Source: a virus
Virus record (IMG/VR): IMGVR_UViG_3300036781_000821
Coordinates: 1-64,000 of that record
Reading direction: 5' to 3' (one strand)
DNA length: 64,000 bases
How positions within the stretch are numbered: position 1 is the stretch's first letter; each line of letters begins with the position of its first letter. The translations under genes and the position numbers were made by a program. The notes below the pieces were generated by a model. The model did not search any database. It was given only the letters and a program-made list of their open reading frames with translations, and was not told the origin of the DNA. This document shows, in pieces, positions 262 to 21,509 of the stretch.

Positions 262-1302
262 TCATCGCAAGATTTGTATCGAGTCGAGTAACTTCTGAAG
301 CTCATCCTCTGAAAGCTGATCTGGTTGCACGCTATCCGAAAGCTCCACGAGTTGCACATCATAGACTCGCCGTCGCAATCGATCGGCGATCTCAACCGCG
401 GCTCCCCTGCCCGCTTCATCGCCATCGAGCATGATCGCAATTTGCGCGAAACGATCCGCGAGAAGATTTTCCTGTGCGATGCTCATAGTCGAACCCATGA
501 GTGCGATACACGGGAATCCCGCTTGCGTCACTTTCATGCAGTCAAAGAATCCTTCGACCAGAACAGCTGATAATTTTGCTTGCACGCGATGCAGGTTATA
601 AAGTTCAAGTGACTTATGAAAACCCGCCGGAAATTTGTAGCGCGGTTCCGTTCCGTCGATTGATCTCCCGGCATAGGCGATGAGTTCGCCGTTCGAATCA
701 TGAATCGGGATCACAATGCGACCATGCATCGATCCCTTGCCGGAAAATAATCCGACGCCGAACGTCTTCGCGATTTCATCGCCCACTCCCCTCTCATAGA
801 GATACGGATGATAGTGATCGATGTTGCGAAGTTCGAACGTAAGCGGAAGATTCGATTCACCCTTCTCCATTCCGTTATTTTTTTCTGAAGCGGAAATTGT
901 TTTGGGTTCCTTGTCTGCGGAAATATTTTCTGCGCGAGCGGATTCCTTGCCAGGCGTTGCCGATTGAACGCCGGCGGCCGGGACGAGAAACCACGTTTGC
1001 AATTTGATTGCAGCATCGCGAATGGAACATTTCTCCATCGCGGCGACGAAGTCGAGTACGTTCCCGCCGACTCGACCTCGCGCCTTGATGCAGGATTGCG
1101 ATTGGCACGCCCAGGCTCCTCCCATCCCCTTGTTCAGAGTGGCGGTGAAACTCTCCGTGCTCTTATCCGAACGGTGCATCGGCAGCGGACATTTTCCCCG
1201 GAGTGTTGTCGGGTTCATGCGCCGCAGCGGGATGCCATAACGTTCGATCGCCATCTGAAGCGTGACTAGTTTTTTGATCTCATCGAAGCTCACCCAATCC
1301 AT
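262..1302 (-). CDS. DnaG-like primase (CHC2 zinc finger + Toprim) of mobile element
   Basis: CPLPMH...WACQSQSC zinc finger, GNVLDFV, RIVIPIHD..G.LIAYAGR, Toprim VLVEGFFD and MLDGDEAG. Confidence 0.88.
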   Translation of the reverse strand: MDWVSFDEIKKLVTLQMAIERYGIPLRRMNPTTLRGKCPLPMHRSDKSTESFTATLNKGMGGAWACQSQSCIKARGRVGGNVLDFVAAMEKCSIRDAAIKLQTWFLVPAAGVQSATPGKESARAENISADKEPKTISASEKNNGMEKGESNLPLTFELRNIDHYHPYLYERGVGDEIAKTFGVGLFSGKGSMHGRIVIPIHDSNGELIAYAGRSIDGTEPRYKFPAGFHKSLELYNLHRVQAKLSAVLVEGFFDCMKVTQAGFPCIALMGSTMSIAQENLLADRFAQIAIMLDGDEAGRGAAVEIADRLRRRVYDVQLVELSDSVQPDQLSEDELQKLLDSIQILR

Positions 1303-1438
1303 TTGTTTTGTTCTCCTTAGGTTGTTGATTTGCGTACTCCGGTAACCCTAAGGCTGATCGCGTGGGCTGTCAAATCCGTGTCGCGGAGATCCTCTTTCAA
1401 GTCGTGAAAAGCGTAAACTCGGCTCGATGTTCCAAATA

Positions 1439-1628
1439 GTGCACTCCGAATGAAAAGTATCGGGAGCCCTTGTTTTTGTTGGTGCACTGCGGATGAAACC
1501 AGCCAGTGCACCAGGAATGAAGTGGTGCACTCGGGATGAAACAATGGTGCACTCGGAATGAAGTTTTAGTGCACTCGGAATGAAGGGATAGTGCACGGCG
1601 AATGAAGTTTCGGTGCACCTCGAAATAA
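1439..1628. repeat. Eight iterons (consensus GTGCACTCGGAATGAA), putative replication origin
   Basis: GTGCAC cores at 1439, 1482, 1506, 1525, 1547, 1569, 1591, 1613; the last five are exactly 22 bp apart; lies between divergent primase and rep genes. Confidence 0.85.
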
Positions 1629-1773
1629 GCGCCGAGTAAATTATTGCCAGATCTTTCAGGCACGCCGCGACGTTTTTGGCTGGTTAGACTTTCTTAGAGT
1701 TCTTAGATAGACCTAAACAATCAACACGCATGTTGTTGATGGAAAAGGAGTTCCATGAAAGAATTAAGGCACT

Positions 1774-3648
1774 ATGAACGATGAGAGGGGAACAACTGAA
1801 AAAGACAACTTTGGGGAAAACGACGGGACCGTACTTCAGGTGTCGGCGGAGACCTTGCCATCGACCGAATTTGTGAAGGTGGAAAAGAATCTGGCGTCGC
1901 TCGGATTCTTCACGCCTTCGAGTAATCGACTCCGAAACACTCAAGAGAAATCGTTTACGATCACGACTGTCGCCGACGGCCAACGGTTAGAGCTGAAGGG
2001 CACCATCATTCCATCCGCGAAATACGGATTGCCGATCACCGCGGACCAGGACAAATGGATAGCACTCTGCAAAATTTTATCGGACATCCTCCAAAGGGAG
2101 GGGCAGGTGACGAACCCGGTCTCGTTCACTTCCGCGGACATCCTCCGGCTCCTTCATAAGCATCGGCACAGCGGAAAGAATTATCGCGAAATCGAAGAGT
2201 GGCTCGATGTGCTTTTTTCAACGACGATCTTCTCTGAAGGTGTTGTGTATCTCGCCAAAGAAAAGCGCCGCGTCAAAGATCGATTTCGCGTCTTCGATCG
2301 CGTGGTGAGCTTCGGCAAAGAACTTGCTGACGGAAAAGTTGCCGACAAGAATTACGTGTGGCTTTCCGACTGGCAGATACAGAACATCAACAACAACCAT
2401 TTGCTCCCGATCGACCTTGAAGCGTACCGCGAATTAAGAAACCACATCGCGAAAGCACTCGTGCCTCTTCTGCAGATTTGGCTCTACGCGACGCGAGACA
2501 AAGGTGTGTTTGAAAAACGATACAGTGAACTGTGCGAGATCCTGAACATCCGGCAGTACCAATACCGCTCACTCATCGTACAGACCCTCGGTCCATCTCT
2601 CGACGAGTTGAAACAGTTCGGCTATTTGGCAGACTGGCAGATCGCGGACACAAGCGACAAACACGGATACAAAATCATTTTGTATCACGGCGAGAAGTTC
2701 CATCGCGATCGCCGCGCTCGACTAACAAAACAGCGAACGCAGGCCGATTCGTCGCTACCCCGTCTCTACGATGATCGCGCGCGGCCGGCCGCGCCGCGCG
2801 AGCATGGAATTCGAACGCCACAATCACACACCCACGCTCGGCCGGAAAAAGTGTTCGATCCAGACCTCATCGCCGAGTTTGTCCGGCGGGGGATTACTGA
2901 AAAGAAAGCCGAGAACCTTCTCGCGAATCTGAAGACCGGCCAAGAACAGAACCTCATCGCGCAGTTGGAGCACGCCGAATACAGCGTCTTGCATTCGCGA
3001 ACGCCGATCGACAATCCCGCCGGTTTCATCATCTACCTTATCGAAATGAACACGCCGGTTCCCGATGGATTCGAGACGAGTGCGAAGCGCATCGCACGAG
3101 AAACAAGAGAACGCCGGGATCATGCGCAACGGGATGCCGAGGACGCGCGGGAACAACTGGAACTCGCGTACGAGGAATATCGCGACGCCGAAGTCGATCA
3201 ATACATCCGGGAGAATGCCGACGCTTTCGAAGCGATGAAGGATGCCAAGTGGAAAGAAGACCAGGCGCGGTTCAGCTTCGCAACCGAGAGCATGGCGCGA
3301 ATGGAAATCCGATATCAGATCCGCGGGCAACTGCCTCTCCTCACCTTCGAGGAATTCTTGACCCGAAGAGAGCAGGGGGGCGATTTTTCCTTGAAACTAG
3401 TTGCGCACTCCCCAGTCGCCGAGTCCCTCCTCGTCATCGCGCCGCCCGAAGAGTTGATCGCCGCGCAGGATCCTTCGAGTGTTCCAGCGGATCTTCCGGA
3501 AGCGGCTCCGGCGGGCGACTCGGCGAACGCACCCGAAGTTGAACCGGAAACGAACCTGGCAATGCCGGAGCCGATGATGATCCAACTCGCCTCCGAACCT
3601 CCTTACCTGGAACCGGGAGAGGCCCCCTCCGAGACAGGTCTCGCGTAG
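1774..3648 (+). CDS. Plasmid replication initiator (RepA-like) with long C-terminal extension
   Basis: EKNLASLGFF, YGLPITADQDKWIAL, IDLEAYRELRNHIAKAL, SLDELKQFGYL winged-helix Rep-type motifs; adjacent iterons. Confidence 0.75.
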   Translation: MNDERGTTEKDNFGENDGTVLQVSAETLPSTEFVKVEKNLASLGFFTPSSNRLRNTQEKSFTITTVADGQRLELKGTIIPSAKYGLPITADQDKWIALCKILSDILQREGQVTNPVSFTSADILRLLHKHRHSGKNYREIEEWLDVLFSTTIFSEGVVYLAKEKRRVKDRFRVFDRVVSFGKELADGKVADKNYVWLSDWQIQNINNNHLLPIDLEAYRELRNHIAKALVPLLQIWLYATRDKGVFEKRYSELCEILNIRQYQYRSLIVQTLGPSLDELKQFGYLADWQIADTSDKHGYKIILYHGEKFHRDRRARLTKQRTQADSSLPRLYDDRARPAAPREHGIRTPQSHTHARPEKVFDPDLIAEFVRRGITEKKAENLLANLKTGQEQNLIAQLEHAEYSVLHSRTPIDNPAGFIIYLIEMNTPVPDGFETSAKRIARETRERRDHAQRDAEDAREQLELAYEEYRDAEVDQYIRENADAFEAMKDAKWKEDQARFSFATESMARMEIRYQIRGQLPLLTFEEFLTRREQGGDFSLKLVAHSPVAESLLVIAPPEELIAAQDPSSVPADLPEAAPAGDSANAPEVEPETNLAMPEPMMIQLASEPPYLEPGEAPSETGLA

Positions 3649-8355: not shown

Positions 8356-9096
8356 TTAACCGCCGCGAGCCCCACTCCGCGCAGGAGACACCCGCTCCAG
8401 AAACGAGCCGAGCCTGGCCGTCGCCCGGAACTGCGGAACTGCCTCCAACTCCTTGAATGCCGACGTAAAGGCGTTCGACAAACTCCACATAGTCCGCGGC
8501 TGGAACTCTTCCACCTGCGGGTCGAAGTAGTTACCGTGAACCAGGCGTGCCAAATGGCGCGGCACCTCCAGTTCACTCTCAACGAACGCCTGGTAGATGA
8601 CGAGCTTGGCAGTCACGTCCGAAATCTGGCTCTCCCGCCACACCTCGATCTGCCTTTGCATCGGTTCGAAATTCCGCTGCATTCGATCCACACCAATCGA
8701 TAGAGCATCGACGAGCGAAAAGCTTTTCGAGTGCTTGGCTAAGACAGGTGTAAAGTCCCCGCTGAAGGCCATATTGTCGCAAACCAAGACCCGATAGCCG
8801 ACAGTAAGCGCAAGACGCATCGACTTGTCGTTGGCATTGCGTAGGCCGATGGAAAACCGGCAACCATGCATGCCTGTTTCGAGGTCCATGACGCCAAACA
8901 TGCGCATGCCATCGTGCGAAACAGCGTACTCGTCACGAACCACGCCGATGTGCCGGAAGCCCAACGTCTCGACCACCGCCTGGACAATCTCGTGATGTGG
9001 GATTGGTTGATGAGTTCTCGTAGATTCCGGGACGGGAATGTGTTGCAAATCCGCCCTGGTGATCTTTCCTGTCTGGGAAAGTAAAGTTGCGGTCAT
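8356..9096 (-). CDS. DUF932 family protein (mobile-element leading-region type)
   Basis: THQPIPHHE, IGLRNANDKS, GYRVLVCDNMAF, RTMWSLSNAFT. Confidence 0.85.
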   Translation of the reverse strand: MTATLLSQTGKITRADLQHIPVPESTRTHQPIPHHEIVQAVVETLGFRHIGVVRDEYAVSHDGMRMFGVMDLETGMHGCRFSIGLRNANDKSMRLALTVGYRVLVCDNMAFSGDFTPVLAKHSKSFSLVDALSIGVDRMQRNFEPMQRQIEVWRESQISDVTAKLVIYQAFVESELEVPRHLARLVHGNYFDPQVEEFQPRTMWSLSNAFTSAFKELEAVPQFRATARLGSFLERVSPARSGARGG

Positions 9097-9757
9097 AAAG
9101 AACGTACTCCTTTGTGATGTTCAGGCGAGGTCAAGCCTCACCTTCCGCGATTCACTCTAGGCTGCCAGGCCACGATGAGAAAGAGGACTAAACTTGCCCA
9201 AAGCGCAAGGAGGCGATGGCTCCAGCTGCATCCATTGGAGATGGACCGGCTCGTCGTTCCCGCTCTTTCGGGCATAATCCGCCGTCCGCTACGGCCATGA
9301 AGAGAGGCGGTGCTGGATCGCGAAAAAGCGCTTCGGTGAAGGGGACGAATGACGATAGGTTCTCGACTCCGCACTGATGATGCGTACTGGAGCAGTTGGA
9401 AGAGAACCGGGATCAGCCAAGCGCTCTCTTCACCGCTCGTTGATCGGACCGGTGGGCCGAGCGGCGCTTCCAGTAAGCCTTAAGCCGCGGGTAAATTGAC
9501 GCGGCCTGGACCGATAGGTTCACCGATGGAACAAAGCAAATCAGAGTGTTTTGTGATAACTAGCATCCCGGAACGCCGACCAACAAGAAGAATCGAAGAG
9601 AGAACACAAATAAGGCGATCAACGTGTCTCGTTTTGACTTCTGTGCGTGCTCATTGCTAGGATGAGTCGTCGTGTTTCCCGAGAAAGCATTTGGAGCTAC
9701 ACGATATAACTCTTTGAAATCGTTTCCTAATCTGAATGTCCGAATTGGAGGTGGATC

Positions 9758-10594
9758 GTGCCTCTTCCTGCGTGGCTGGATGCACTTCGCCAAACGGAGG
9801 TCATAGCTGCCGTTCGTAGCCTGCCGGAGACAGGTGGAAATCATTTCCGCGGTCTCCATAAGGATGAAGTCGTTAACCTAGTAATCGGGGGCGGTCAGGC
9901 TGATTTCGACCTGCCGTACAAGCACCTCACCGCCAGGGATCGGGCGCTGCTCTACGCCTACTTTAACCAGCTTGGACATCTTGAGGAACTTCACGAAGCG
10001 TTCACGCAGCTCTTCGGCACAGGGCGACCAGATCAGCCACTCATCGTAGTAGACGTGGGGTGCGGACCGTTTACTGGCGGACTGGCTCTGGCAGCCGTCC
10101 TCGGCCCTGAGATTCCATTCAGCTATATTGGCGTTGATCGCTCATTAGCGATGCGCGAATTAGGCGAGCACTTCGCTAGCGCTGCGGAGCGCGTTGGCGC
10201 GTTCAATTGCGCTGGGCGGAAGTGGGTACAAGACGTAAACGCCATTGACTGGACCAACGCACCAGGATGGCGCCCAGTTCTGGTTATTGCGTCTTATCTT
10301 TTGGCGAGCCCAACGCTGAATGCGGAAGCCCTAGTTGCGGAGCTCGATCTACTTTACACACGTTTCGGAAGGGGATCCGTGACAATTTTGTACACCAACT
10401 CGCCGAACTCTACACCGAATCGGAGCTTTGCGGCTTTCAGAGCAGCCCTCGAAATGCGGGGCTTCGCCGTAATCGCTGACGATCATGGATCGATCACTAT
10501 CAACCGGTACCAGGGCTCTAAGGAACGAAAACTCCGGTATGCGCTGCTCCATCGCGGAGAACAGCGGATTCTCGATGTCCAGGAACCCCGATGA
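9758..10594 (+). CDS. Class I SAM-dependent methyltransferase (Rsm22-like)
   Basis: LLYAYFN..H, IVVDVGCGPFTGG motif I, YIGVDRS motif II. Confidence 0.75.
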   Translation: MPLPAWLDALRQTEVIAAVRSLPETGGNHFRGLHKDEVVNLVIGGGQADFDLPYKHLTARDRALLYAYFNQLGHLEELHEAFTQLFGTGRPDQPLIVVDVGCGPFTGGLALAAVLGPEIPFSYIGVDRSLAMRELGEHFASAAERVGAFNCAGRKWVQDVNAIDWTNAPGWRPVLVIASYLLASPTLNAEALVAELDLLYTRFGRGSVTILYTNSPNSTPNRSFAAFRAALEMRGFAVIADDHGSITINRYQGSKERKLRYALLHRGEQRILDVQEPR

Positions 10595-11688
10595 AGCTAC
10601 CCACATGGGATGAATTAATTCTAGAACAGCTGAACGTAATGGAGCATCCATTAGACCAACCGCTATTTGTGGCAGGTCCGCCTGGTTCAGGGAAGACAGT
10701 CTTGGCGGTGCGCCGGGCGGAAATGGCTTCCGATAAAGGTCAACCTGTGGCCCTCGTAACATATAACCGCATGCTGCGAAGATTAGCCGCGATCCTGACT
10801 GGTGGTGATACCGTTGCGAATACGATGCACCGCTTTGCGTACCTCGATTATCGGAACCGAACGGGTACCGCTCCTCCCGGGTTCTTGTACCGCCCGAGCT
10901 ACGACTACGATTGGGATACGATGTTGGCGACGCTGGATGGACACGCCAACGCTGAAGCCAACTGGGATCATGTTGTGGTAGATGAGGGACAGGACCTTCC
11001 TGAAGGGTTTTTTCGATACCTTCGTCGACACGCCGCTCGTGTATTAACTGTTTTTGCAGACGAGGACCAAGCTCTAGACGATCGCAGAACGACTTTGACG
11101 CAGATTCGGACAGGGGCAGAACTCCCGAATCCTATTCTGCTTAAGGAGAATCACCGAAACCGTCCCGAAATTGCGGCGGTGGCTGAGCACTTCCATAGCG
11201 GCGTGCTGCCCGCTGCCACGCCGCGGCGACCTGTCCTCGGGCAACGACCGCGGCTGATCCAGAGGCCGTCAATCGTCGACACCGTCGAGCTAATCGCAAC
11301 ATGGCTTGAGAATCGTGGGGGAACCATCGGCGTCATTGTTGCCAAGAACTCAATGGCTGAGCGTGTTCGCCAGGCACTGACGAGCCGCTTATCCGGAAGG
11401 CGCGTCGATTGCTACACTTCGGGAAGGAACAATGAAGACCAGATTCAGCTTCTCGATGACGGTGTTACGATTCTGAACAAGAAGTCTGTCAAGGGACAGG
11501 AGTTTGACTCGGTGTTCCTTCTGGAGTTGGAACAGTTTGTTCCGTGTGCGACCGAGGTGATGAAACGGGGCATGTACATGATGTGTTCGCGAGCGCGTGA
11601 CCATCTATTCTTAGTGTATGGAGCCGCCGGCTTGACTGCCGCTGCGATGAAAGCGTTGCCGGGAGCCGATGTTCTGGAGCGTGGATGA
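10591..11688 (+). CDS. Compact SF1 (UvrD-like) helicase/ATPase
   Basis: GPPGSGKT, LVTYNR, VVVDEGQD, ADEDQ, ENHRN, KGQEFD, YMMCSRARD; ATGA overlap with upstream gene. Confidence 0.88.
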   Translation: MKLPTWDELILEQLNVMEHPLDQPLFVAGPPGSGKTVLAVRRAEMASDKGQPVALVTYNRMLRRLAAILTGGDTVANTMHRFAYLDYRNRTGTAPPGFLYRPSYDYDWDTMLATLDGHANAEANWDHVVVDEGQDLPEGFFRYLRRHAARVLTVFADEDQALDDRRTTLTQIRTGAELPNPILLKENHRNRPEIAAVAEHFHSGVLPAATPRRPVLGQRPRLIQRPSIVDTVELIATWLENRGGTIGVIVAKNSMAERVRQALTSRLSGRRVDCYTSGRNNEDQIQLLDDGVTILNKKSVKGQEFDSVFLLELEQFVPCATEVMKRGMYMMCSRARDHLFLVYGAAGLTAAAMKALPGADVLERG

Positions 11689-14492
11689 GCGTAAAGCAGA
11701 TTCCAATGGATTTCGTAGTTCCGGAAAGGAGGATGGACGGCCCCGTTGCTATGGGAAGCCTTTGGCTCGGCCTCACGGTGGATCATCGTGTTCTCTTTGA
11801 GGGACTTCAGGATGATTGGCTGCGCCCGCGTGAAGGAACTCACGGCTACGTCTTGGGTCGTCGAGCTTTCCCTGTCAATCGCGACGAACTCGCTGAGGGG
11901 CATCGCATTCTTGTTCGCATAAAACTAGATCCTACGCACCTCCCCCGATTGCCGGTTTATCGTCTTCAGGCTGGCGAATGGGCGCTTTCTTCAGTCCTTG
12001 CTGATGGGCCGGGCGATTCTCCTATCTTCTGGCCCGGCGTCATCCCGACCTTCGCCATATCAGACTTATTGGTCTCTTCAGATGAAGAGAGAGCACGGCT
12101 TGCCGGATTGGCCCGGCAGGTTTCGAACGTGGCACTGCCGTCAGTGCCACGCACACTGAGGCCTGGAAAAGACCTTGCTATTCCCCCGAGCGCCCTACCG
12201 CCCGAGCCAAGAGCGGGGATCGAATTGCCCGCAGGGTTAGACGCAGTCCGCGGTTCCATCGCAATGGGGATGTGGGCTATCCCACGAGTGGAACCATGGG
12301 CCGATTTGCTCTGCAAGAGTTTCGGACCCAATGCGATGGAGGAGCTGCCCTCGCTTGCCGGGTACCTTCACTCACCGTGGTGGGTTGCACCGCCCTGGAT
12401 TCGGAGATCGCCTCAATTACCCCTCTCTGGGCAAGAGCATCTATGGCTCGCTGCGATTCGTGTTTTCAGTAGGGCGCGCGCGGCACCGCAATTATTGGAA
12501 TCCGACCTGGTACAACAAATTGTTGAAGATGCCGGGCGCACCGCGTCGGACGACGACTTGCGCCGTCTCGGGGCTTGGGCAGACGAAACAAACCTGATAC
12601 TCCGAGGAAATACTCGACTCGAATTAAAAGATTGGAAATTGAATCCAGTCAGTAAGGCCATCCAGCTGGTGTTGGCACGCCCAGATCCCTCAAGTTTCGC
12701 GAAGTGGAAAGACGACCTTCCCTCGTTGCCACCGACTATCTGGTTCTCGGCCGCGGCCCTGTGTGGGCTCGTACATGGGTATCGGCGCCTTCCGATGTCG
12801 TTCAGGGGAGACGTCGAACAGCGACGTTTATTTGCGATTTATGCCCTTCATGCACTCGGTCCTGCGCCGCTCCCTGAAAACTGGGCCGCTTTAGTGCGAG
12901 CGGCCCCAGAATGGCATCGGGACTCAGGCGACATTGTGTTTTCCTGGTCGCGAACCGTGTATGCGCGAAAGGCTGAACACGCACGAGCAAAATGGTTCAC
13001 CTCGGATTTGGAGGACATAGCCGTCAGGAAGTCGGCAGAAGAAATTAGTCGGGCCAATCGGTGGCCTTGTGTTACTACCAGGGTCATTGTCCCAGGATGC
13101 GAGGTCCCGTTCTCCGGTGAATCCGTAGAAGTAATCGCGGGTCCACCGCAACATCTGGCGATGAAGGGCCGTACAGAATTCACGCTGCCTCCCGACGCGG
13201 TGTTTGAGCCGATTCTTGATCCAAAAGAATTCCGTCGGTGTATTGTGACCGAGGGGGCCACCGTTCCTATACCGGGGCCGCCGCAGCGAATCCTGCCGAC
13301 TGCAGTATCGATAGAGGTTCCGAAGCCGATCGGTGTTCCTGGGTTAGCTTATGTCCGAGAGTTTTTAACTGAGGCTCAACAGGCAGACCTGATTGCAATT
13401 ATCGATAAAGGCGAATGGAATTCTGAGCTTCGCCGCCGAGTTCAGCATTTCGGGTGGCGCTACGACTACAAGACTCGCGAGATCGATATGTCGATGAGAC
13501 TAGGTCCCTTACCTCCATGGGCGAGCGCGTTAGCAGAGAGGCTTAATTTAGAAGGGCTTCTACCGCACGTCCCTGACCAGGTGATTGTGAATGAGTACGT
13601 TGAGAATCAGGGAATCAGTAGGCACATTGACTGTGTCCCTTGTTTCGATGATGGTGTGGCGATGATCAGCCTCCTTGAATCGTGGGAAATGATATTCCAG
13701 AAGAAGGGCGAAGGGACACAAGTGGCCAAGCTACTAGAGGACCGTAGCGTTACAGTTATGAGTGGCGATGCGCGTTACCAGTGGTCACACGAGATTCCTG
13801 CGAGGTACTCGGAGCCCACTGGCCTGCGTCGGCAGCGGCGGGTCTCAGTGACTTTCCGCAAAGTGAAGGTGAGCGACACTCCTCGCCTTCGCGAATCCCG
13901 CGGCCGTTCTCGCAATAGCGGTTTGCCCGCGCGCAAGAAAGCCTTGTCCTCTCCCGTGCAGGTCAAGGTTGATCGAATTCGCGCAACAGATCCGACATTA
14001 ATGGCCACCAGGACCGCCGATGAGTCGCGTGGGATGGCAAGAGAAATAGATGTCCAGTTGCGGGCACACGAAGGAGGCATAGTAGTTGCCGCCCGTCAGG
14101 TACAGGATGGCGACAAGGCACTCGCGGCACGAATCACTGTCGTGGACATCCGCACGTTTCAAGACGGAAAGCTGATCACGAGTAAGCAGTTTCATTCGAA
14201 CGAAGGCCGCTTCCTATACCATGCCATCCAACTTAGAAGAGTTGTGGGTACAGAGGGTGACCTTCATTACGGTGACGAAGGGTTGTGGTGGCTAGTGTAC
14301 CCCATGAAGGGTAAGCAAAGCGTTCAGATGTATTGGCCGGACCGACCGATAGACCACGGCAAACAACTACCACCTGGGAGATATTGTGCTGCGTTAGAAA
14401 TCTGGATTGGAGAGAAGAGTCTTCGGTTTGAGGCGCTCTGGGAAATTGACGCAGAACACAGGGTTACGACTTCTAGGATCGAGCGCAAATGA
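11685..14492 (+). CDS. Large multidomain protein with internal AlkB-type 2OG-Fe(II) dioxygenase
   Basis: RRVQHFGWRYDY, DQVIVNEY..NQGISRHID, WSHEI, RRVSVTFR (~13340-13865); ~550-aa unknown N-terminus; ATGA overlap. Confidence 0.82.
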   Translation: MSVKQIPMDFVVPERRMDGPVAMGSLWLGLTVDHRVLFEGLQDDWLRPREGTHGYVLGRRAFPVNRDELAEGHRILVRIKLDPTHLPRLPVYRLQAGEWALSSVLADGPGDSPIFWPGVIPTFAISDLLVSSDEERARLAGLARQVSNVALPSVPRTLRPGKDLAIPPSALPPEPRAGIELPAGLDAVRGSIAMGMWAIPRVEPWADLLCKSFGPNAMEELPSLAGYLHSPWWVAPPWIRRSPQLPLSGQEHLWLAAIRVFSRARAAPQLLESDLVQQIVEDAGRTASDDDLRRLGAWADETNLILRGNTRLELKDWKLNPVSKAIQLVLARPDPSSFAKWKDDLPSLPPTIWFSAAALCGLVHGYRRLPMSFRGDVEQRRLFAIYALHALGPAPLPENWAALVRAAPEWHRDSGDIVFSWSRTVYARKAEHARAKWFTSDLEDIAVRKSAEEISRANRWPCVTTRVIVPGCEVPFSGESVEVIAGPPQHLAMKGRTEFTLPPDAVFEPILDPKEFRRCIVTEGATVPIPGPPQRILPTAVSIEVPKPIGVPGLAYVREFLTEAQQADLIAIIDKGEWNSELRRRVQHFGWRYDYKTREIDMSMRLGPLPPWASALAERLNLEGLLPHVPDQVIVNEYVENQGISRHIDCVPCFDDGVAMISLLESWEMIFQKKGEGTQVAKLLEDRSVTVMSGDARYQWSHEIPARYSEPTGLRRQRRVSVTFRKVKVSDTPRLRESRGRSRNSGLPARKKALSSPVQVKVDRIRATDPTLMATRTADESRGMAREIDVQLRAHEGGIVVAARQVQDGDKALAARITVVDIRTFQDGKLITSKQFHSNEGRFLYHAIQLRRVVGTEGDLHYGDEGLWWLVYPMKGKQSVQMYWPDRPIDHGKQLPPGRYCAALEIWIGEKSLRFEALWEIDAEHRVTTSRIERK

Positions 14493-14811: not shown

Positions 14812-15510
14812 ATGGCGAAACAAGCTAACGTCATTTCGCATTGGTCGCAACTCATCGAGAATTTCCAGACCTCATCGCTTGACTTCTATACCTCCGTCGA
14901 GAGGGCGGTCGGAACAAGGGCTGTCCCGGAGATCCACTGGAGTCGCGTGGAGCACAAGGAAGGCGGTCTCGCCAGCGCAAACCGAGAGTACGTTCGCATG
15001 CATCGTGGCAAACATGCGTTCGATATCTGTGCGGCGCCCTTCGGCACCGGCTTCTTCATCTCATGGTGGTTTACGGAACCGCCCTTGCGCTTCGGCTTTC
15101 TCTATACCGTCGCCGTCTTTTTTGGAGTCCTAATCGCCGCCGACATTGCCTACACTATGGGCTTCGCGTTGGGAATAGCGATCTCGGGATTTGGCCTCGG
15201 CTTCCTGATGGCTGGCGCTGGTGTGTTCTTGGGCGTACCACTTCTGCTCTGGCTCATCGGAAATGGCCTGCGTCAAGGCATTATCCTGGGCGAAAGTATG
15301 GTTCTGGCAATGCCGCTCGTCGGCTGGCTATACGAGCGGGTTTTCGCTCCCGCAACTTTCTATAACCTTGATACTGCTCTGATGTTCCAGGAAGCAGTAC
15401 ACAATGCCGTCCTAGAAGTGCTCGATTGTGTCACCGCGGACAAGGGAGTTCGCGCGCTTACCGAAGCTGAGCGCAAGCCCATCATGAAGCGCTTAGCTGC
15501 GTCGGTCTGA
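14812..15510 (+). CDS. Membrane protein upstream of coupling-type ATPase
   Basis: 2-3 hydrophobic helices; GGAG RBS; 3-nt gap to next gene. Confidence 0.7.
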   Translation: MAKQANVISHWSQLIENFQTSSLDFYTSVERAVGTRAVPEIHWSRVEHKEGGLASANREYVRMHRGKHAFDICAAPFGTGFFISWWFTEPPLRFGFLYTVAVFFGVLIAADIAYTMGFALGIAISGFGLGFLMAGAGVFLGVPLLLWLIGNGLRQGIILGESMVLAMPLVGWLYERVFAPATFYNLDTALMFQEAVHNAVLEVLDCVTADKGVRALTEAERKPIMKRLAASV

Positions 15511-15513
15511 TGT

Positions 15514-18500
15514 ATGTCTTGCGAGTCTTCGTCTAGCGAAGCCCTGACTCGGCAGTTCTATAACTGGGAAGTCCGGGGAAGGGGATGGGAAGTCTGGGGC
15601 CAGCCGGTTGAGCTGGAGCCGCCGTTCCGTCCTTTCTTCGGTCACTTCCTCGCGGGGATGCCCGGTACCCGAAAAGATGACGGTCGAAAACCGACGTTTC
15701 TAAGTTCGTTCTTCGATCGGCTCAAACCGATGGGTACCGCCCCTGAGTTGATTGCCACCGAGGAGGAACCGGCAGCCACGTACCTGACGGATGAACCCTC
15801 CATTCTTGAAATACAGACCGCGCTTCCGCCGGAGATGAAGATCACCAAAGATGCTGCCAGCCAATTCCTGCTCAGTCTGGGACACGTCTCCCGTCCGGTC
15901 AGTTTCGAGGTTATCGGCACAGGCGAATCCATCGTGGTGCAAATGGCCTGTGCTCGACCCGATCACCGCCAGATCCGCGAACAACTGCAAGCGTACTTCC
16001 CAGACGCGATCCTCACGGAGCGACACGGACACCTGGGAGCGCTATGGGATGAAACCGGGGCACGCGAGAGCGTTGCCGTTGATTTCGGTTTATCGAAAGA
16101 GTTCATGCGTCCTCTACGTTCTTACGAACGGTTCGATCCTGATCCGTTGGCCGGTCTCATTGGAACCATGGCCGAACTATCGAAAGATGAAGTTGCCGTA
16201 TTCCAGGTGCTCTTCACCCCAGTACGGCATGCATGGCCGGAGAGCATCATTAGGGCAGTAACCGATGCAGAAGGCAACTCCTTCTTCCTTGATGATCCGT
16301 CCATGATCAAACTGGCTGCGGATAAAGTATCGTCGCCGCTCTTTGCCGCGGTCGTCCGCGTTGCCGCTCAGAGCCCACGGAGAAAGAGGGCGTGGCGGAT
16401 CGTCCAAGGCATCGGCAAATCACTCCGCCAATTTGCCGATGCTGCCAGCAATGAGTTCATTCCGCTTGCAAACGATGACTATGAGGATGGGCAACACGCG
16501 CGTGATGTCGTCGCGCGAGCGAGTTGCCGTTCGGGCATGCTGCTCAACTGCAATGAGCTGCTCTCACTTGTTCATCTACCATCGGCGTCCGCACGGACAG
16601 TCAAGCTCAAGCGGGAAGAACGGCGGACGAAGGCGGCGCCAGTTCTCGCATTCGGCCACAAGCTTGCCATAGGCGAGAATCACCACGCCGGCAAAACCAA
16701 ACACATAACGATGAGTCCCGACCAGCGGGTACGGCATATGCACGTTATTGGGACATCCGGGAGTGGTAAAAGCACGCTCCTGTTGAACATGATTGCTGAG
16801 GACATTCGGAACGGGGAAGGCCTGGCGGTGCTCGATCCCCATGGGGATTTGATTGACCAGGTGCTCGGTCACATTCCCGAGGAGCGGATCGGTGACGTGG
16901 TGCTCGTTGATCCCTCTGACGAAGCCTATCCCATCGGATTCAACATTCTCTCCGCTCACTCCGAGCTTGAACGGAATCTTCTCGCGTCGGATCTGGTTTC
17001 AGTCTTTCGCAGACTCTCGACCTCCTTTGGCGATCAAATGACCACCGTGCTGGCCAACGCCATCATGGCATTTCTAGAGAGCGATGAAGGGGGGACTCTC
17101 TCGGACCTTCGAAGGTTTCTCGTTGAGCCTGGCTTCCGAGCCGAGTTTCTCCAGTCGGTTCGCGACCCTGAGATTGTGTACTACTGGGAGAAAGAATTCG
17201 CGCTTCTCGCGGGTAAACCGCAAGGCCCGATCCTGACCCGGCTCGATACCTTTCTCCGACCCAAGGTCATCCGGTACATGGTTTCGCAAAAGCAGAACCG
17301 CATTGATTTCGCGGCGATTATGAATAGCCGAAAGATCCTCCTGGTCAAGCTTGCCCAGGGTCTCATCGGCGAGGAGAACTCATATCTCTTAGGTACACTC
17401 ATGGTCTCGAGGATCAATCAGATGGCCATGAGCCGCCAGAATATGGCCGCTTCGGAGCGCAAGCACTTCTATCTCTATATCGATGAGTTCCACAACTTTA
17501 TAACGCCATCGCTCGCAGCGATTCTCGCCGGTGCACGGAAATACAACCTCGGGCTGATCCTCGCGCACCAAGAACTGCAGCAGCTTTCGACTCGCGACGG
17601 TGACGTGGCAAGTGCCGTGATTTCGAATCCATACACACGAGTCTGCTTTCGACTCGGCGACTTCGACGCAAGGAAGCTGGAAGACGGATTCTCTTATTTC
17701 AAAGCCAAAGATCTCCAGAACCTCGCGGTCGGGGAGGCGATCTGCCGCATCGAACGGGCGGAGTATGATTTCAATCTGAAGATCACGCCGCTTCCTGCGG
17801 TGGAGCCGGAGGTCGCCGCACGGCGTCGGGAGCAGATTATCGCCTCCTCACGGGAGCGATATGCGACGCGGCGCGAGGATGTAGAGACGCTGCTTCGTGC
17901 CGGGCATTCGGTCGCGGAGGAGCCGTCGGCTCCCGCTTCGAGGAAGACGGCGAAGATCAGGGTTCCCGTTCCGCTCCCGACTGAGAAACTCGCAACGGAG
18001 GAAACCCTACCGGCGGTCGCGACACCGGGCCGCGGGGGAGAGCATCATAAATATCTCCAGCAGCTCATAAAGCGCTGGGCGGAGGCTCGCGGATACGCGG
18101 TCACGATAGAAAAATCGATCCTCGACGGTCTGGGATCGATCGATGTAGCTTTGGAGAAGGGGAACCGTTCGGTCGCGTGCGAGGTGTCGGTGACCACCGA
18201 TCCCCAGCACGAAGTCAGCAACGTTCAAAAGTGCCTGGCCGCTGGCTTTGACGAGGTGATGCTCATTTCTTCGGAGAAGAAGGTGCTCGCCGCCGCGCGG
18301 CACGCCCTGGTCTCGGTGCTCAGCTCCGCTCAGTACCGGCAGGTGAGGTTCCTGACGCCGGAGGAACTCTTCTCTTTCCTGGAAAGTTCGGAGGCCAAGC
18401 CCGCTGCGAAGGGGGCGAGCGCCGATCCGGACGAGATGTTGACCGCCAAGGAAGTAGAGGAGCTCCTCCGGATCGACGTGAAGACGGTTTACAGCTACGC

Positions 18501-18621
18501 CCAACGGGGCCTCTTGCCGTATGTAAAGATCCAGTCGAACCTCCGTTTCGTGAAGAGCGAGATCCTCAAGTGGATGGCGGAGCACCAGTTCAAGCCGACT
18601 ACGCGAAACTCAAGAAAGTGA
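15514..18621 (+). CDS. VirD4/TraD/HerA-like ATPase fused to PD-(D/E)XK-like and HTH_17 domains
   Basis: HMHVIGTSGSGKS, VLDPHGDL, FYLYIDEFHNF, ARKYNLGLILAHQ; C-terminal IDVALEK..VACEV and LTAKEVEELLRIDVKTVY. Confidence 0.82.
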   Translation: MSCESSSSEALTRQFYNWEVRGRGWEVWGQPVELEPPFRPFFGHFLAGMPGTRKDDGRKPTFLSSFFDRLKPMGTAPELIATEEEPAATYLTDEPSILEIQTALPPEMKITKDAASQFLLSLGHVSRPVSFEVIGTGESIVVQMACARPDHRQIREQLQAYFPDAILTERHGHLGALWDETGARESVAVDFGLSKEFMRPLRSYERFDPDPLAGLIGTMAELSKDEVAVFQVLFTPVRHAWPESIIRAVTDAEGNSFFLDDPSMIKLAADKVSSPLFAAVVRVAAQSPRRKRAWRIVQGIGKSLRQFADAASNEFIPLANDDYEDGQHARDVVARASCRSGMLLNCNELLSLVHLPSASARTVKLKREERRTKAAPVLAFGHKLAIGENHHAGKTKHITMSPDQRVRHMHVIGTSGSGKSTLLLNMIAEDIRNGEGLAVLDPHGDLIDQVLGHIPEERIGDVVLVDPSDEAYPIGFNILSAHSELERNLLASDLVSVFRRLSTSFGDQMTTVLANAIMAFLESDEGGTLSDLRRFLVEPGFRAEFLQSVRDPEIVYYWEKEFALLAGKPQGPILTRLDTFLRPKVIRYMVSQKQNRIDFAAIMNSRKILLVKLAQGLIGEENSYLLGTLMVSRINQMAMSRQNMAASERKHFYLYIDEFHNFITPSLAAILAGARKYNLGLILAHQELQQLSTRDGDVASAVISNPYTRVCFRLGDFDARKLEDGFSYFKAKDLQNLAVGEAICRIERAEYDFNLKITPLPAVEPEVAARRREQIIASSRERYATRREDVETLLRAGHSVAEEPSAPASRKTAKIRVPVPLPTEKLATEETLPAVATPGRGGEHHKYLQQLIKRWAEARGYAVTIEKSILDGLGSIDVALEKGNRSVACEVSVTTDPQHEVSNVQKCLAAGFDEVMLISSEKKVLAAARHALVSVLSSAQYRQVRFLTPEELFSFLESSEAKPAAKGASADPDEMLTAKEVEELLRIDVKTVYSYAQRGLLPYVKIQSNLRFVKSEILKWMAEHQFKPTTRNSRK

Positions 18622-20293: not shown

Positions 20294-20368
<75 letters not shown>

Positions 20369-20423: not shown

Positions 20424-21509
20424 TCAGTTCACCGACAGGCTTTGCTCAAGCTGATTGAGCGCCACCTGCCTCAATTCGACCGCTGTGCTGGTATACACAT
20501 TCTGGTTAACGTCCAGGCTGTGCCCGAGCTGATCCGCTACCAGCTTCCCGTCCACGCCCAGCGCCTTCATTAAGGATGAGTGTGTCCGACGGAGGACGAG
20601 GAAATTCACCCAGCCCAACCCGACCTTGGACAGCTTGGGATGGATTGAACGCCGAAAGCAGTTGTCCTTGGACAGTGGCGTCATCCGTTCAGACGGAAAG
20701 ACCCATGCCTCTGGACATGTATCAACCGCGATCGCTCGCCACGCTTCGATCTCGCGAAGCAATCCCTCCGGCAATGCCGCCTGCCGAACGGACTGGTTGG
20801 TCTTCGGAGTATCGATCACGTTCCGGTAGGTCCGTTGCCGGATGTCCGCGTAAGCCGCCGTCATCCGACCCCACGTGAGGGCGAAAATCTCGCCCGGCCG
20901 CATTCCGGCCACGACCCCTAATTTGCAGATCAAGCGTTCACGGCCGTCCAATACTTCAAAACAGGTTTGCACCTCCTTTAAGGTCATAACGCGGCGCACG
21001 GGCTTCGCCGCTTCTCTCGGGGTGAACAGCAACATCGCCGGGTTTCGCTGGACACGACCTTCAGCCACGGCCATGTCAAAAATTTGCTTCGCGTCCCAAC
21101 GGAGATGATCCACGGTCGAGTAGGACAAACCCGCGTTGGCCTTTGCGTCCAAAAGATCCTGCAACTCGTCCCGCTTCAAGCTGGACAAGGCCCGATCTCC
21201 AAACGCGCTGACCAAATGCGTGTTCACCCTATACACGTTGTTTTCTCTCGTGCTGCGTTTCCACTTCCGACCGTAAAATTCGTAATACGGCCCGCTCACA
21301 AATTCGCCGAACGTCCAAACCCGGTTTTCGTCGACCTTGGCGTTCGCCTCATCCGCGAACTTATTCACCGCCGCCCGCGCCTGAGTCTTGGTCATCGACT
21401 TCACTGGACCCAAAACTCTGGAACGATGGCTGCCCGTGGAGTCGTAAAACATCCCGACCCACTTGCCCTTCTGCTTCTTCAAACTGCCACGCTGATACTT
21501 TTGACGCAT
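20424..21509 (-). CDS. int: Tyrosine recombinase / phage integrase
   Basis: YQRGSL arm-binding N-terminus, GMRPGEI, TPKT, LRRT, LGHS..NVY. Confidence 0.93.
   Translation of the reverse strand: MRQKYQRGSLKKQKGKWVGMFYDSTGSHRSRVLGPVKSMTKTQARAAVNKFADEANAKVDENRVWTFGEFVSGPYYEFYGRKWKRSTRENNVYRVNTHLVSAFGDRALSSLKRDELQDLLDAKANAGLSYSTVDHLRWDAKQIFDMAVAEGRVQRNPAMLLFTPREAAKPVRRVMTLKEVQTCFEVLDGRERLICKLGVVAGMRPGEIFALTWGRMTAAYADIRQRTYRNVIDTPKTNQSVRQAALPEGLLREIEAWRAIAVDTCPEAWVFPSERMTPLSKDNCFRRSIHPKLSKVGLGWVNFLVLRRTHSSLMKALGVDGKLVADQLGHSLDVNQNVYTSTAVELRQVALNQLEQSLSVN

Follow-up and report, generated by a model that had tools for sequence, protein, structure and literature searches.

The stretch of viral DNA analyzed here (the window: 64,000 nucleotides, positions 1 to 64,000 of IMG/VR record IMGVR_UViG_3300036781_000821) carries three overlapping genes that encode a methyltransferase dependent on S-adenosylmethionine (SAM), a helicase of superfamily 1 (SF1) and a large multidomain protein with an AlkB oxygenase domain. 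The three genes form a real, rare and horizontally spread cassette, which looks like an undescribed relative of DarHTG. DarHTG (Liu-DS3) of E. coli consists of a UvrD-like helicase that lacks domain 2B, a DarT protein and DarG3, an antitoxin of the ADP-ribosylglycohydrolase (ARH) type (PMC13069673). Its anti-phage activity was established by experiment and needs the DarT and ATPase sites (PMC13069673). We propose, with a probability of roughly 45%, that the cassette is a conflict system derived from DarHTG in which ADP-ribosylation has been swapped for reversible methylation. This origin is favored because the helicase, the ADP-ribosyltransferase (ART) fold and the ARH fold are colinear with DarHTG while only the methyltransferase, the helicase and AlkB retain catalytic signatures, and because the large protein is found either with the methyltransferase and the helicase or behind an operon of helicase, active DarT and ARH.

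The original prediction, made from the letters of the window, had described three open reading frames (ORFs) joined by ATGA overlaps, and the coordinates are exactly as it claimed. Both overlaps were read directly: the ATGA at 10591-10594 holds the methyltransferase stop and the helicase start, and the ATGA at 11685-11688 holds the helicase stop and the start of the large gene. The GTG start at 9758 agrees with the N-termini of 32 methyltransferase relatives. Scans for promoters and terminators gave matches at chance level only. The features of the cassette are as follows.

9747-9753, plus strand: Shine-Dalgarno sequence GGAGGTG, read directly, 4 nt before the GTG of the methyltransferase gene
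9758-10594, plus strand: SAM methyltransferase gene (278 aa, GTG start, class I, Rsm22/METTL17-like)
10591-11688, plus strand: SF1 helicase gene (365 aa, compact UvrD/HelD-like ATPase/helicase)
11685-14492, plus strand: large multidomain gene (935 aa, putative scaffold plus oxygenase)
11748-12173, plus strand: DarT/Tpt1-like ADP-ribosyltransferase fold (residues 22-163 of the large protein)
12228-12869, plus strand: ADP-ribosylglycohydrolase (ARH3/DraG) fold (residues 182-395)
12906-13250, plus strand: third domain, mixed alpha/beta, confidently modeled (residues 408-522)
13317-13919, plus strand: ALKBH8-like AlkB domain, an Fe(II)/2-oxoglutarate (2OG) dioxygenase (residues ~545-745)
13938-14489, plus strand: C-terminal tail, found in this copy only (residues 752-935)

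Proteins of the cassette and their kin

The N-terminal ~550 residues of the large protein, regarded as unknown in the original prediction, contain DarT-like and ARH-like folds, and only the third domain (408-522) is left without a fold match in the VIA or exhaustive searches. An AlphaFold model of residues 1-560 was built with 90 relatives and reached a predicted local distance difference test (pLDDT) score of 90.3 and a predicted template modeling (pTM) score of 0.87. Foldseek first pointed to DarT and ARH3 for this region. In VIA, the ART-like domain (model residues 23-163) matched DarT (7omx) with Z 10.0 (rmsd 3.6, 136 residues aligned) and Tpt1/KptA with Z 6.4-7.9, and the ARH-like domain (model residues 182-393) matched ARH3 (6g1q) with Z 14.0 (rmsd 3.6, 204 residues aligned). 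An exhaustive search of 48,161 chains placed nine ARH-fold entries first (Z 9.8-13.6), followed by four DarT entries (Z 8.5-9.8) and then Tpt1; unrelated entries were short helical fragments with Z no higher than 5.9. Since the ARH domain is helical, a Z near 13 would by itself be weak, and the assignment rests on the exclusive ranking of the families.

Profiles of the same region are silent. Pfam gave no match in the first 550 residues, even at an E-value of 10. With hhalign, the ART-like domain was not significantly similar to 12 DarT sequences (probability 2%), nor was the ARH-like domain to ARH (probability 0.2%). Hidden Markov models (HMMs) failed in both directions, and the DarT HMM had no match in the 77 loci described below. 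Neither 301 Pseudomonadota genomes nor the controls yielded the Pfam family 2CompART (PF22546).

The canonical catalytic residues of the two folds could not be traced. In a low-confidence alignment to DarT, neither candidate position for the catalytic glutamate (DarT E160, on the fifth strand) is conserved: 56/90 sequences have Glu at position 127, where the window has Asp, and at the other candidate, position 112 is Glu in 24/90 and position 113 Ala in 63/90. The ART-like domain does keep a His after strand 1 (83/90), several residues near it, an adjacent Arg (86/90) among them, and an aromatic residue at position 62. The ARH-like domain lacks the metal-ligand motifs GDAxG and GGDTDT; where ARH has GGDTDT ahead of a helix, the cassette family has PPAVxW. 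Judged by these motifs, both domains are probably catalytically dead. The hunch of a DarT-like ART in the original prediction holds at the level of the fold (Z 10), although the segment that it had quoted could not be identified as the catalytic strand. Fusions of the N-terminal module's relatives to other domains are rare: to DUF4326 and NADAR in a 1213-aa protein (P0166), and in a 1963-aa protein (P0175) the ART-like/ARH-like module occurs with a YAcAr SLOG domain.

The AlkB domain of the large protein matched Pfam 2OG-FeII_Oxy_2 (PF13532) at residues 591-725 (7.8e-16). The motifs HxD...H and RxSxTxR are present and invariant across relatives, and the intact AlkB site that had been predicted is fully borne out, as every catalytic residue is kept: H647, D649, H702, N636, Y638, R719 and R725 are invariant in 18/18 sequences. 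Against the PDB, human ALKBH8 was the best match (1.8e-22) and the next best stood at 1.5e-9; further matches were ALKBH4-like, ALKBH7 and ALKBH6. E. coli AlkB was not among the PDB matches at E ≤0.01. Because ALKBH8 comes first and E. coli AlkB is not listed, we place the domain in the bacterial ALKBH8-like group. It is 45% identical to a Roseobacter pTB4 protein (H5), presumably the one studied as 'RD' (Roseobacter denitrificans) in work on this group (PMC4051686). DNA repair by bacterial ALKBH8-like proteins is weak or absent, and RNA modification has been proposed for them, and their physiological substrate is an acknowledged open question (PMC4051686).

More than 260 relatives of the large protein were found in the databases, nearly all of them 720-780 aa long, so the 935-aa form of the window carries a private tail of ~190 aa. 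The tail is absent from all relatives and had no homologue in searches. In Atlas, residues 752-935 gave only weak and uninformative beta-sandwich look-alikes, and the tail is possibly a beta-sandwich.

The methyltransferase contains the SAM motif I DxGCGPxTGG, which is invariant across relatives, and lacks a DPPY-type amino-methylase motif. Its assignment as Rsm22-like was confirmed at fold level. For the AlphaFold2 model (pLDDT 93), the best 8 entries in VIA were all METTL17/Rsm22 (Z 16.4-19.8), and generic methyltransferases reached Z 15.8 at most. The match at Z 19.8 includes the N-terminal helical extension, with 233 residues aligned over 1-267. In sequence searches the protein had no Pfam family at E 0.01, its profile matched METTL17 in the PDB weakly (E 0.026), and PADLOC returned C3a159 (1e-8) and mad2 (only 0.0037).

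The helicase is a bare SF1 core without the accessory domains 1B and 2B. The motifs GPPGSGKT, DEGQD, NHRN, KGQEFD and SRARD are present, and Walker A, DExx and motifs III-VI form invariant columns in 34 sequences. Together with the matches to Pfam AAA_19 (4.5e-10) and the UvrD families, and to HelD (8.6e-18) and UvrD (1e-9) in a profile search of the PDB, these motifs agree with the compact UvrD-like helicase of the original prediction.

Helicase and large protein are predicted to bind each other. ESMFold2 gave an ipSAE of 0.83 for the helicase with residues 1-560 of the large protein in three runs and 0.00 for three controls; 58/80 solved complexes and 2/110 mismatched pairs reached the 0.83 mark, counts that hold only roughly, as our own alignments were used as input. 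The runs share at least 90% of contacts, with a partner pLDDT of at least 78. On the large protein, the predicted interface covers conserved ART-like residues (H34, 38-42, 72-75 and 133-149) and the ARH-like part 264-370, and on the helicase it includes the N-terminus (2-22). The methyltransferase and helicase families both start with a conserved L-P-x-[WY]-x-x-x-L (window 9758-9790 and 10591-10620), as LPxW in the methyltransferase and LPT[WY] in the helicase; the motif is absent from DarH-like helicases. In the predicted complex the L-P-x-[WY] motif of the helicase lies against the ART-like domain, and the motif common to the two partners may be a docking peptide for both.

The link to DarHTG-type systems is seen in related loci. 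An acidobacterial locus (L115) holds a helicase-DarT-ARH operon (Pfam DarT 3.9e-21, Pfam ARH 6.7e-31) whose helicase matches the cassette helicase profile at 6e-17, with 27% identity that includes the NHRN motif. Another (L006:4151-10238) holds a complete operon of this kind, for a UvrD-like helicase (463 aa), a DarT with the motifs HFT and QAEVLV (236 aa) and an ARH protein (592 aa). A large-protein homologue is encoded directly behind it in the same orientation, and no methyltransferase accompanies it; the helicase of L006 matches the cassette profile at 2e-23. The same ARH type (77% identical) stands directly upstream of a full cassette in L013. The ARH of this type in L069 and L070 (75-81% identical) carries a fused AlkB domain that shares 58-59% identity with the one of the window. 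In these loci (L070:4544-8648, and L069) a genuine ADP_ribosyl_GH domain is thus joined to AlkB (666 aa), in L070 just downstream of a HerA/DUF87 ATPase, and the ARH-AlkB architecture occurs in at least 11 database clusters.

A second line of kinship comes from plasmids of Picosynechococcus PCC 7002. On pAQ5 and pAQ6 a homologous methyltransferase (profile 5.5e-32; C3a159 6.8e-125) adjoins a stand-alone AlkB (43% identity). In both plasmids (pAQ5, L111, 1914-5588; pAQ6, L114, 3915-7582) a P-loop kinase-WYL protein, the C3a159 methyltransferase and AlkB stand in a row. The pAQ5 pair lies beside reverse transcriptase (RT), abortive infection (Abi) and restriction genes, and the pAQ6 pair beside a RAMP CRISPR protein.

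Conservation and setting of the cassette

A genome scan yielded 77 loci, all from metagenome-assembled genomes (MAGs) and 70 of them with the N-terminal module; locus L096, from an unpublished genome (G054), was excluded from all analyses. The loci span Acidobacteriota, Gammaproteobacteria, Gemmatimonadota, Planctomycetota, Alphaproteobacteria and Entotheonella. The survey of gene neighborhoods bears out the coupling of the three genes that had been predicted: where the N-terminal module is present, the methyltransferase accompanies it in 63/70 loci, the helicase in 65/70 and both in 62/70, and two of the loci without a methyltransferase are truncated by contig ends. The order methyltransferase-helicase-large protein is kept in 60 loci, and the methyltransferase lies downstream in 3. 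A reverse search of metagenomes with the methyltransferase gave 17 loci, with all three genes in 10/10 of those reaching far enough. Of 401 Acidobacteriota genomes, 5 have the N-terminal module, and the methyltransferase was found in exactly these 5, adjacent to it (~1% prevalence). The linkage of methyltransferase, helicase and large protein is far beyond chance.

Gene fusions join the same partners: helicase and large protein form one protein of 1114 aa (P0119 = L018) and are also fused in L068, and methyltransferase and helicase form one of 669 aa (L066). One genome carries two diverged copies of the cassette (L025, L050). No fourth conserved gene was found beside the relatives of the cassette, whose 132 neighboring ORFs belong to 116 different Pfam families; locus ORF calls are crude in GC-rich contigs, and the neighborhood analysis is rough. 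Searches of plasmids revealed no near-identical DNA.

The novelty of the combination, also part of the original prediction, stands. NCBIfam and PADLOC named no system for the three proteins, PADLOC giving weak matches to single genes only, and in the literature searched for the gene combination we found no description of the cassette. Absent from the original prediction were the ARH-like domain, the probable loss of the canonical ART and ARH catalytic residues, the relation to DarHTG, the resemblance of the oxygenase to ALKBH8 instead of E. coli AlkB, and the private nature of the C-terminal tail.

Some neighbors of individual cassettes carry related domains. Directly downstream of the cassette in L027, and convergent with it, lies a gene for a dual-specificity phosphatase-like domain fused to ARH (10296-11777, minus strand); that genome has three such fusion genes. 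On contig 1 of G078, a Pfam-positive DarT gene (a 449-aa open frame) lies ~30 kb from the cassette (about 2.00 versus 2.03 Mb).

In the window, the cassette belongs to an IMG/VR provirus record of 91.9 kb and lies to the left of a tRNA-Gly(CCC) gene (20294-20368) and an integrase gene (20424-21509), with the prophage to their right. Its DNA was met only in the source metagenome, from soil, and no RNA data set containing it was listed. One side of the cassette has Toprim primase, RepA-like and DUF932 genes and the other a coupling-type ATPase. The upstream genes (262-3648 and 8356-9096) encode a Toprim/DnaG-like primase, a RepA-like initiator and DUF932, which hints at another element, integrated or of plasmid origin, to the left of tRNA-Gly and distinct from the prophage. 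The search for an att repeat was negative; the 3' end of tRNA-Gly has no second copy in the window, so that the borders of the island could not be placed. A mobile-element setting is likely. Of the predicted placement in the cargo region of such an element, the provirus record and the primase, RepA and ATPase neighbors uphold the general setting, whereas borders and an att repeat did not emerge.

Downstream of the cassette, a gene for a membrane protein (14812-15510) precedes one for a 1035-aa protein (15514-18621). The latter combines a TrwB/HerA-like ATPase (PADLOC mad8, 7.8e-21) with a PD-(D/E)xK-like segment, and with a C-terminal HTH_17 that is MAD1-like below the cut-off. This pair of membrane protein and coupling-type ATPase stands beside relatives of the cassette in 0/77 loci.

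Proposed function and its rivals

As a conflict system derived from DarHTG, the cassette would be self-contained and horizontally mobile, of the toxin-antitoxin or anti-phage type, and descended from helicase-DarT-ARH systems. The large protein would serve as the hub, its dead DarT-like and ARH-like domains forming a scaffold for the SF1 helicase and maybe also for the methyltransferase, via the LPxW N-terminal motif common to both partners. The Rsm22-like methyltransferase would act as a writer on single-stranded nucleic-acid bases that are exposed or tracked by the helicase, and the ALKBH8-like AlkB domain as an oxidative eraser, protecting the host from the writer or resetting it. The idea of a toxic methyltransferase with AlkB as its antidote was put forward in the original prediction; it is consistent with the evidence and is the model that we prefer. 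RNA is a somewhat more likely target than DNA, as the Rsm22-like and ALKBH8-like affinities point toward RNA and the DarT ancestry toward single-stranded DNA. The scheme is built on observed gene linkage, folds, kept and lost motifs, kinship loci and a complex prediction with controls; target, toxic-writer/eraser logic and any defense role are the parts that we infer. In its most specific form, the methyltransferase would be a toxin making AlkB-reversible lesions (m1A/m3C/m3U type) on single strands of RNA or DNA that the helicase presents, in a system that evolved from a DarHTG-like one by a swap of chemistry and kept dead DarT and ARH as a scaffold; we regard this version as possible but less likely than not.

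Several points weigh against the proposal of a DarHTG-derived methylation system. ALKBH8 acts by hydroxylation within a biosynthetic pathway and not as an eraser, METTL17, the nearest fold neighbor of the methyltransferase, is a ribosome assembly factor, and we know of no toxic relative of the methyltransferase. The flanks in MAGs are mostly housekeeping genes with few restriction-modification genes and one IS21 element, and with crude ORF calls they give no clear defense-island signal. Searches of IMG/VR viral contigs and of phage records gave no relative of the large protein, and plasmid collections match it at the AlkB domain only. The probable loss of ART and ARH activity is drawn from motifs and low-confidence alignments rather than from superposed structures, and since the mechanism of DarT itself is unusual and based on Arg, the active site may be non-canonical. 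Finally, the fusions to NADAR, DUF4326 and SLOG domains suggest that ADP-ribose may still be a relevant ligand.

Alternatively, the cassette could be an eraser or repair module in which dead DarT and ARH domains recognize ADP-ribosylated or N-alkylated single-stranded bases, in DNA or RNA opened by the helicase, and AlkB removes the adduct, an antidote or anti-defense device against DarT-type toxins with the methyltransferase as an accessory. We consider this unlikely, with some evidence in its favor: genuine ARH of the DarG3 type is fused to this AlkB clade or lies next to it (L069, L070, L013, L006), the large protein of L006 stands behind a complete helicase-DarT-ARH operon without a methyltransferase, the cassette lies in a provirus-flagged region, and P0166 joins the module to NADAR and DUF4326. 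NADAR reverses guanine ADP-ribosylation (PMC11543638). However, such a module would leave the strict co-occurrence of the methyltransferase with the large protein unexplained, its relatives are missing from the phages, viral contigs and plasmids searched, and removal of an N-ribosyl adduct by AlkB is chemically plausible only. An active toxin is still less probable: a non-canonical ART held in check by the ARH-like and AlkB domains of its own chain, in effect a fused DarT-DarG3 with added modules. The DarT fold with its His (83/90), adjacent Arg (86/90) and aromatic residue at position 62 would fit such an enzyme, as would a domain order colinear with DarHTG, and DarT catalysis depends on Arg plus Glu (PMC9967889). 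Yet neither candidate catalytic position holds a conserved Glu, there is no profile similarity to DarT, the conserved surface is the predicted helicase interface and the ARH-like domain has no metal ligands, and on balance we think this very unlikely.

The oxygenase and the methyltransferase, taken for themselves, would also fit an ALKBH8-like two-step RNA pathway in which the methyltransferase methylates a nucleoside of tRNA or rRNA, AlkB hydroxylates it and the helicase remodels the RNA, with a regulatory or stress-adaptive role rather than one in conflict. The closest solved relative of the oxygenase, ALKBH8 (1.8e-22), is an AlkB-methyltransferase fusion, the fold of the methyltransferase is nearest to the rRNA-binding Rsm22/METTL17, and a role in RNA modification has been proposed for the bacterial ALKBH8-like proteins (PMC4051686). 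Nevertheless, a prevalence of ~1%, lateral spread over a wide range and changing contexts are unlike a housekeeping function, the methyltransferase is not Trm9-like, and both the DarHTG kinship and the CRISPR, Abi and RT neighbors of the plasmid methyltransferase-AlkB pairs point to conflict. We therefore regard a pathway of this kind as quite unlikely.

A fixed Rsm22-like partner and a helicase make the substrate question of ALKBH8-like AlkB proteins directly testable, and the cultured and transformable PCC 7002, with plasmid methyltransferase-AlkB pairs beside type III CRISPR, offers an experimental entry point. The DarHTG-derived reading would mean that a validated helicase-DarT-ARH defense architecture can be converted into a pseudoenzyme scaffold for other writer/eraser chemistry. 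Should the effector be the methyltransferase, reversible toxic methylation would represent a mode of immunity or toxicity that is new; if it is a toxin that makes AlkB-reversible lesions, bacterial ALKBH8-like AlkB proteins would have in its product their first physiological substrate.

Comparison with known systems

Helicases paired with methylases are known from Hma, the system named in the original prediction, which resembles the cassette in that pairing, but the third gene of the cassette does not encode an ATPase. Kinship with Hma was rejected, as none of the PADLOC models for Hma gave a match in the cassette. Membership in MADS was likewise rejected: the methyltransferase matched mad2 at 0.0037 only, and the mad8-like gene at 15514-18621 is not conserved beside the cassette. 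Replicases of the Flexiviridae have the domain order MT-AlkB-helicase. The same three activities are found together there (PMC544882), as an analogy only, because the replicase is a viral RNA replicase polyprotein and the families are unrelated.

The two N-terminal folds are paired in other systems. In Tre1-Tri1 (6drh) and in a Listeria pair (8za7) the same folds, ART and ARH, occur together, but there they are separate and catalytically active, as protein-targeting secreted toxins and their immunity proteins. The cassette also resembles DarTG (DarT with the macrodomain protein DarG or with NADAR) in its ART fold of the DarT branch and in the logic of a reversible base modification. In contrast to DarTG, the cassette has no macrodomain, its catalytic Glu is not conserved, and it has additional helicase, methyltransferase and AlkB parts.

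On the side of the oxygenase, ALKBH8 and the bacterial ALKBH8-like group have the most similar domain, and the pairing with a SAM methyltransferase is as in ALKBH8. However, the methyltransferase of the cassette is separate and Rsm22-like rather than Trm9-like, there is no RNA recognition motif (RRM) or zinc finger, and AlkB is fused to ART-like and ARH-like domains. The pairs of pAQ5 and pAQ6 are similar in that a homologous methyltransferase and AlkB are adjacent and in the same order, yet these plasmids have a P-loop kinase-WYL protein instead of an SF1 helicase and an ART/ARH-like module.

DarHTG matches the cassette in its helicase without 2B and in the order of what comes next, first the DarT fold and after it the ARH fold. 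It differs in that the T and G3 parts of the cassette are fused, lack canonical catalytic residues and are invisible to Pfam, and in that the cassette adds an ALKBH8-like AlkB, a third domain and a strictly linked gene for an Rsm22-like methyltransferase.

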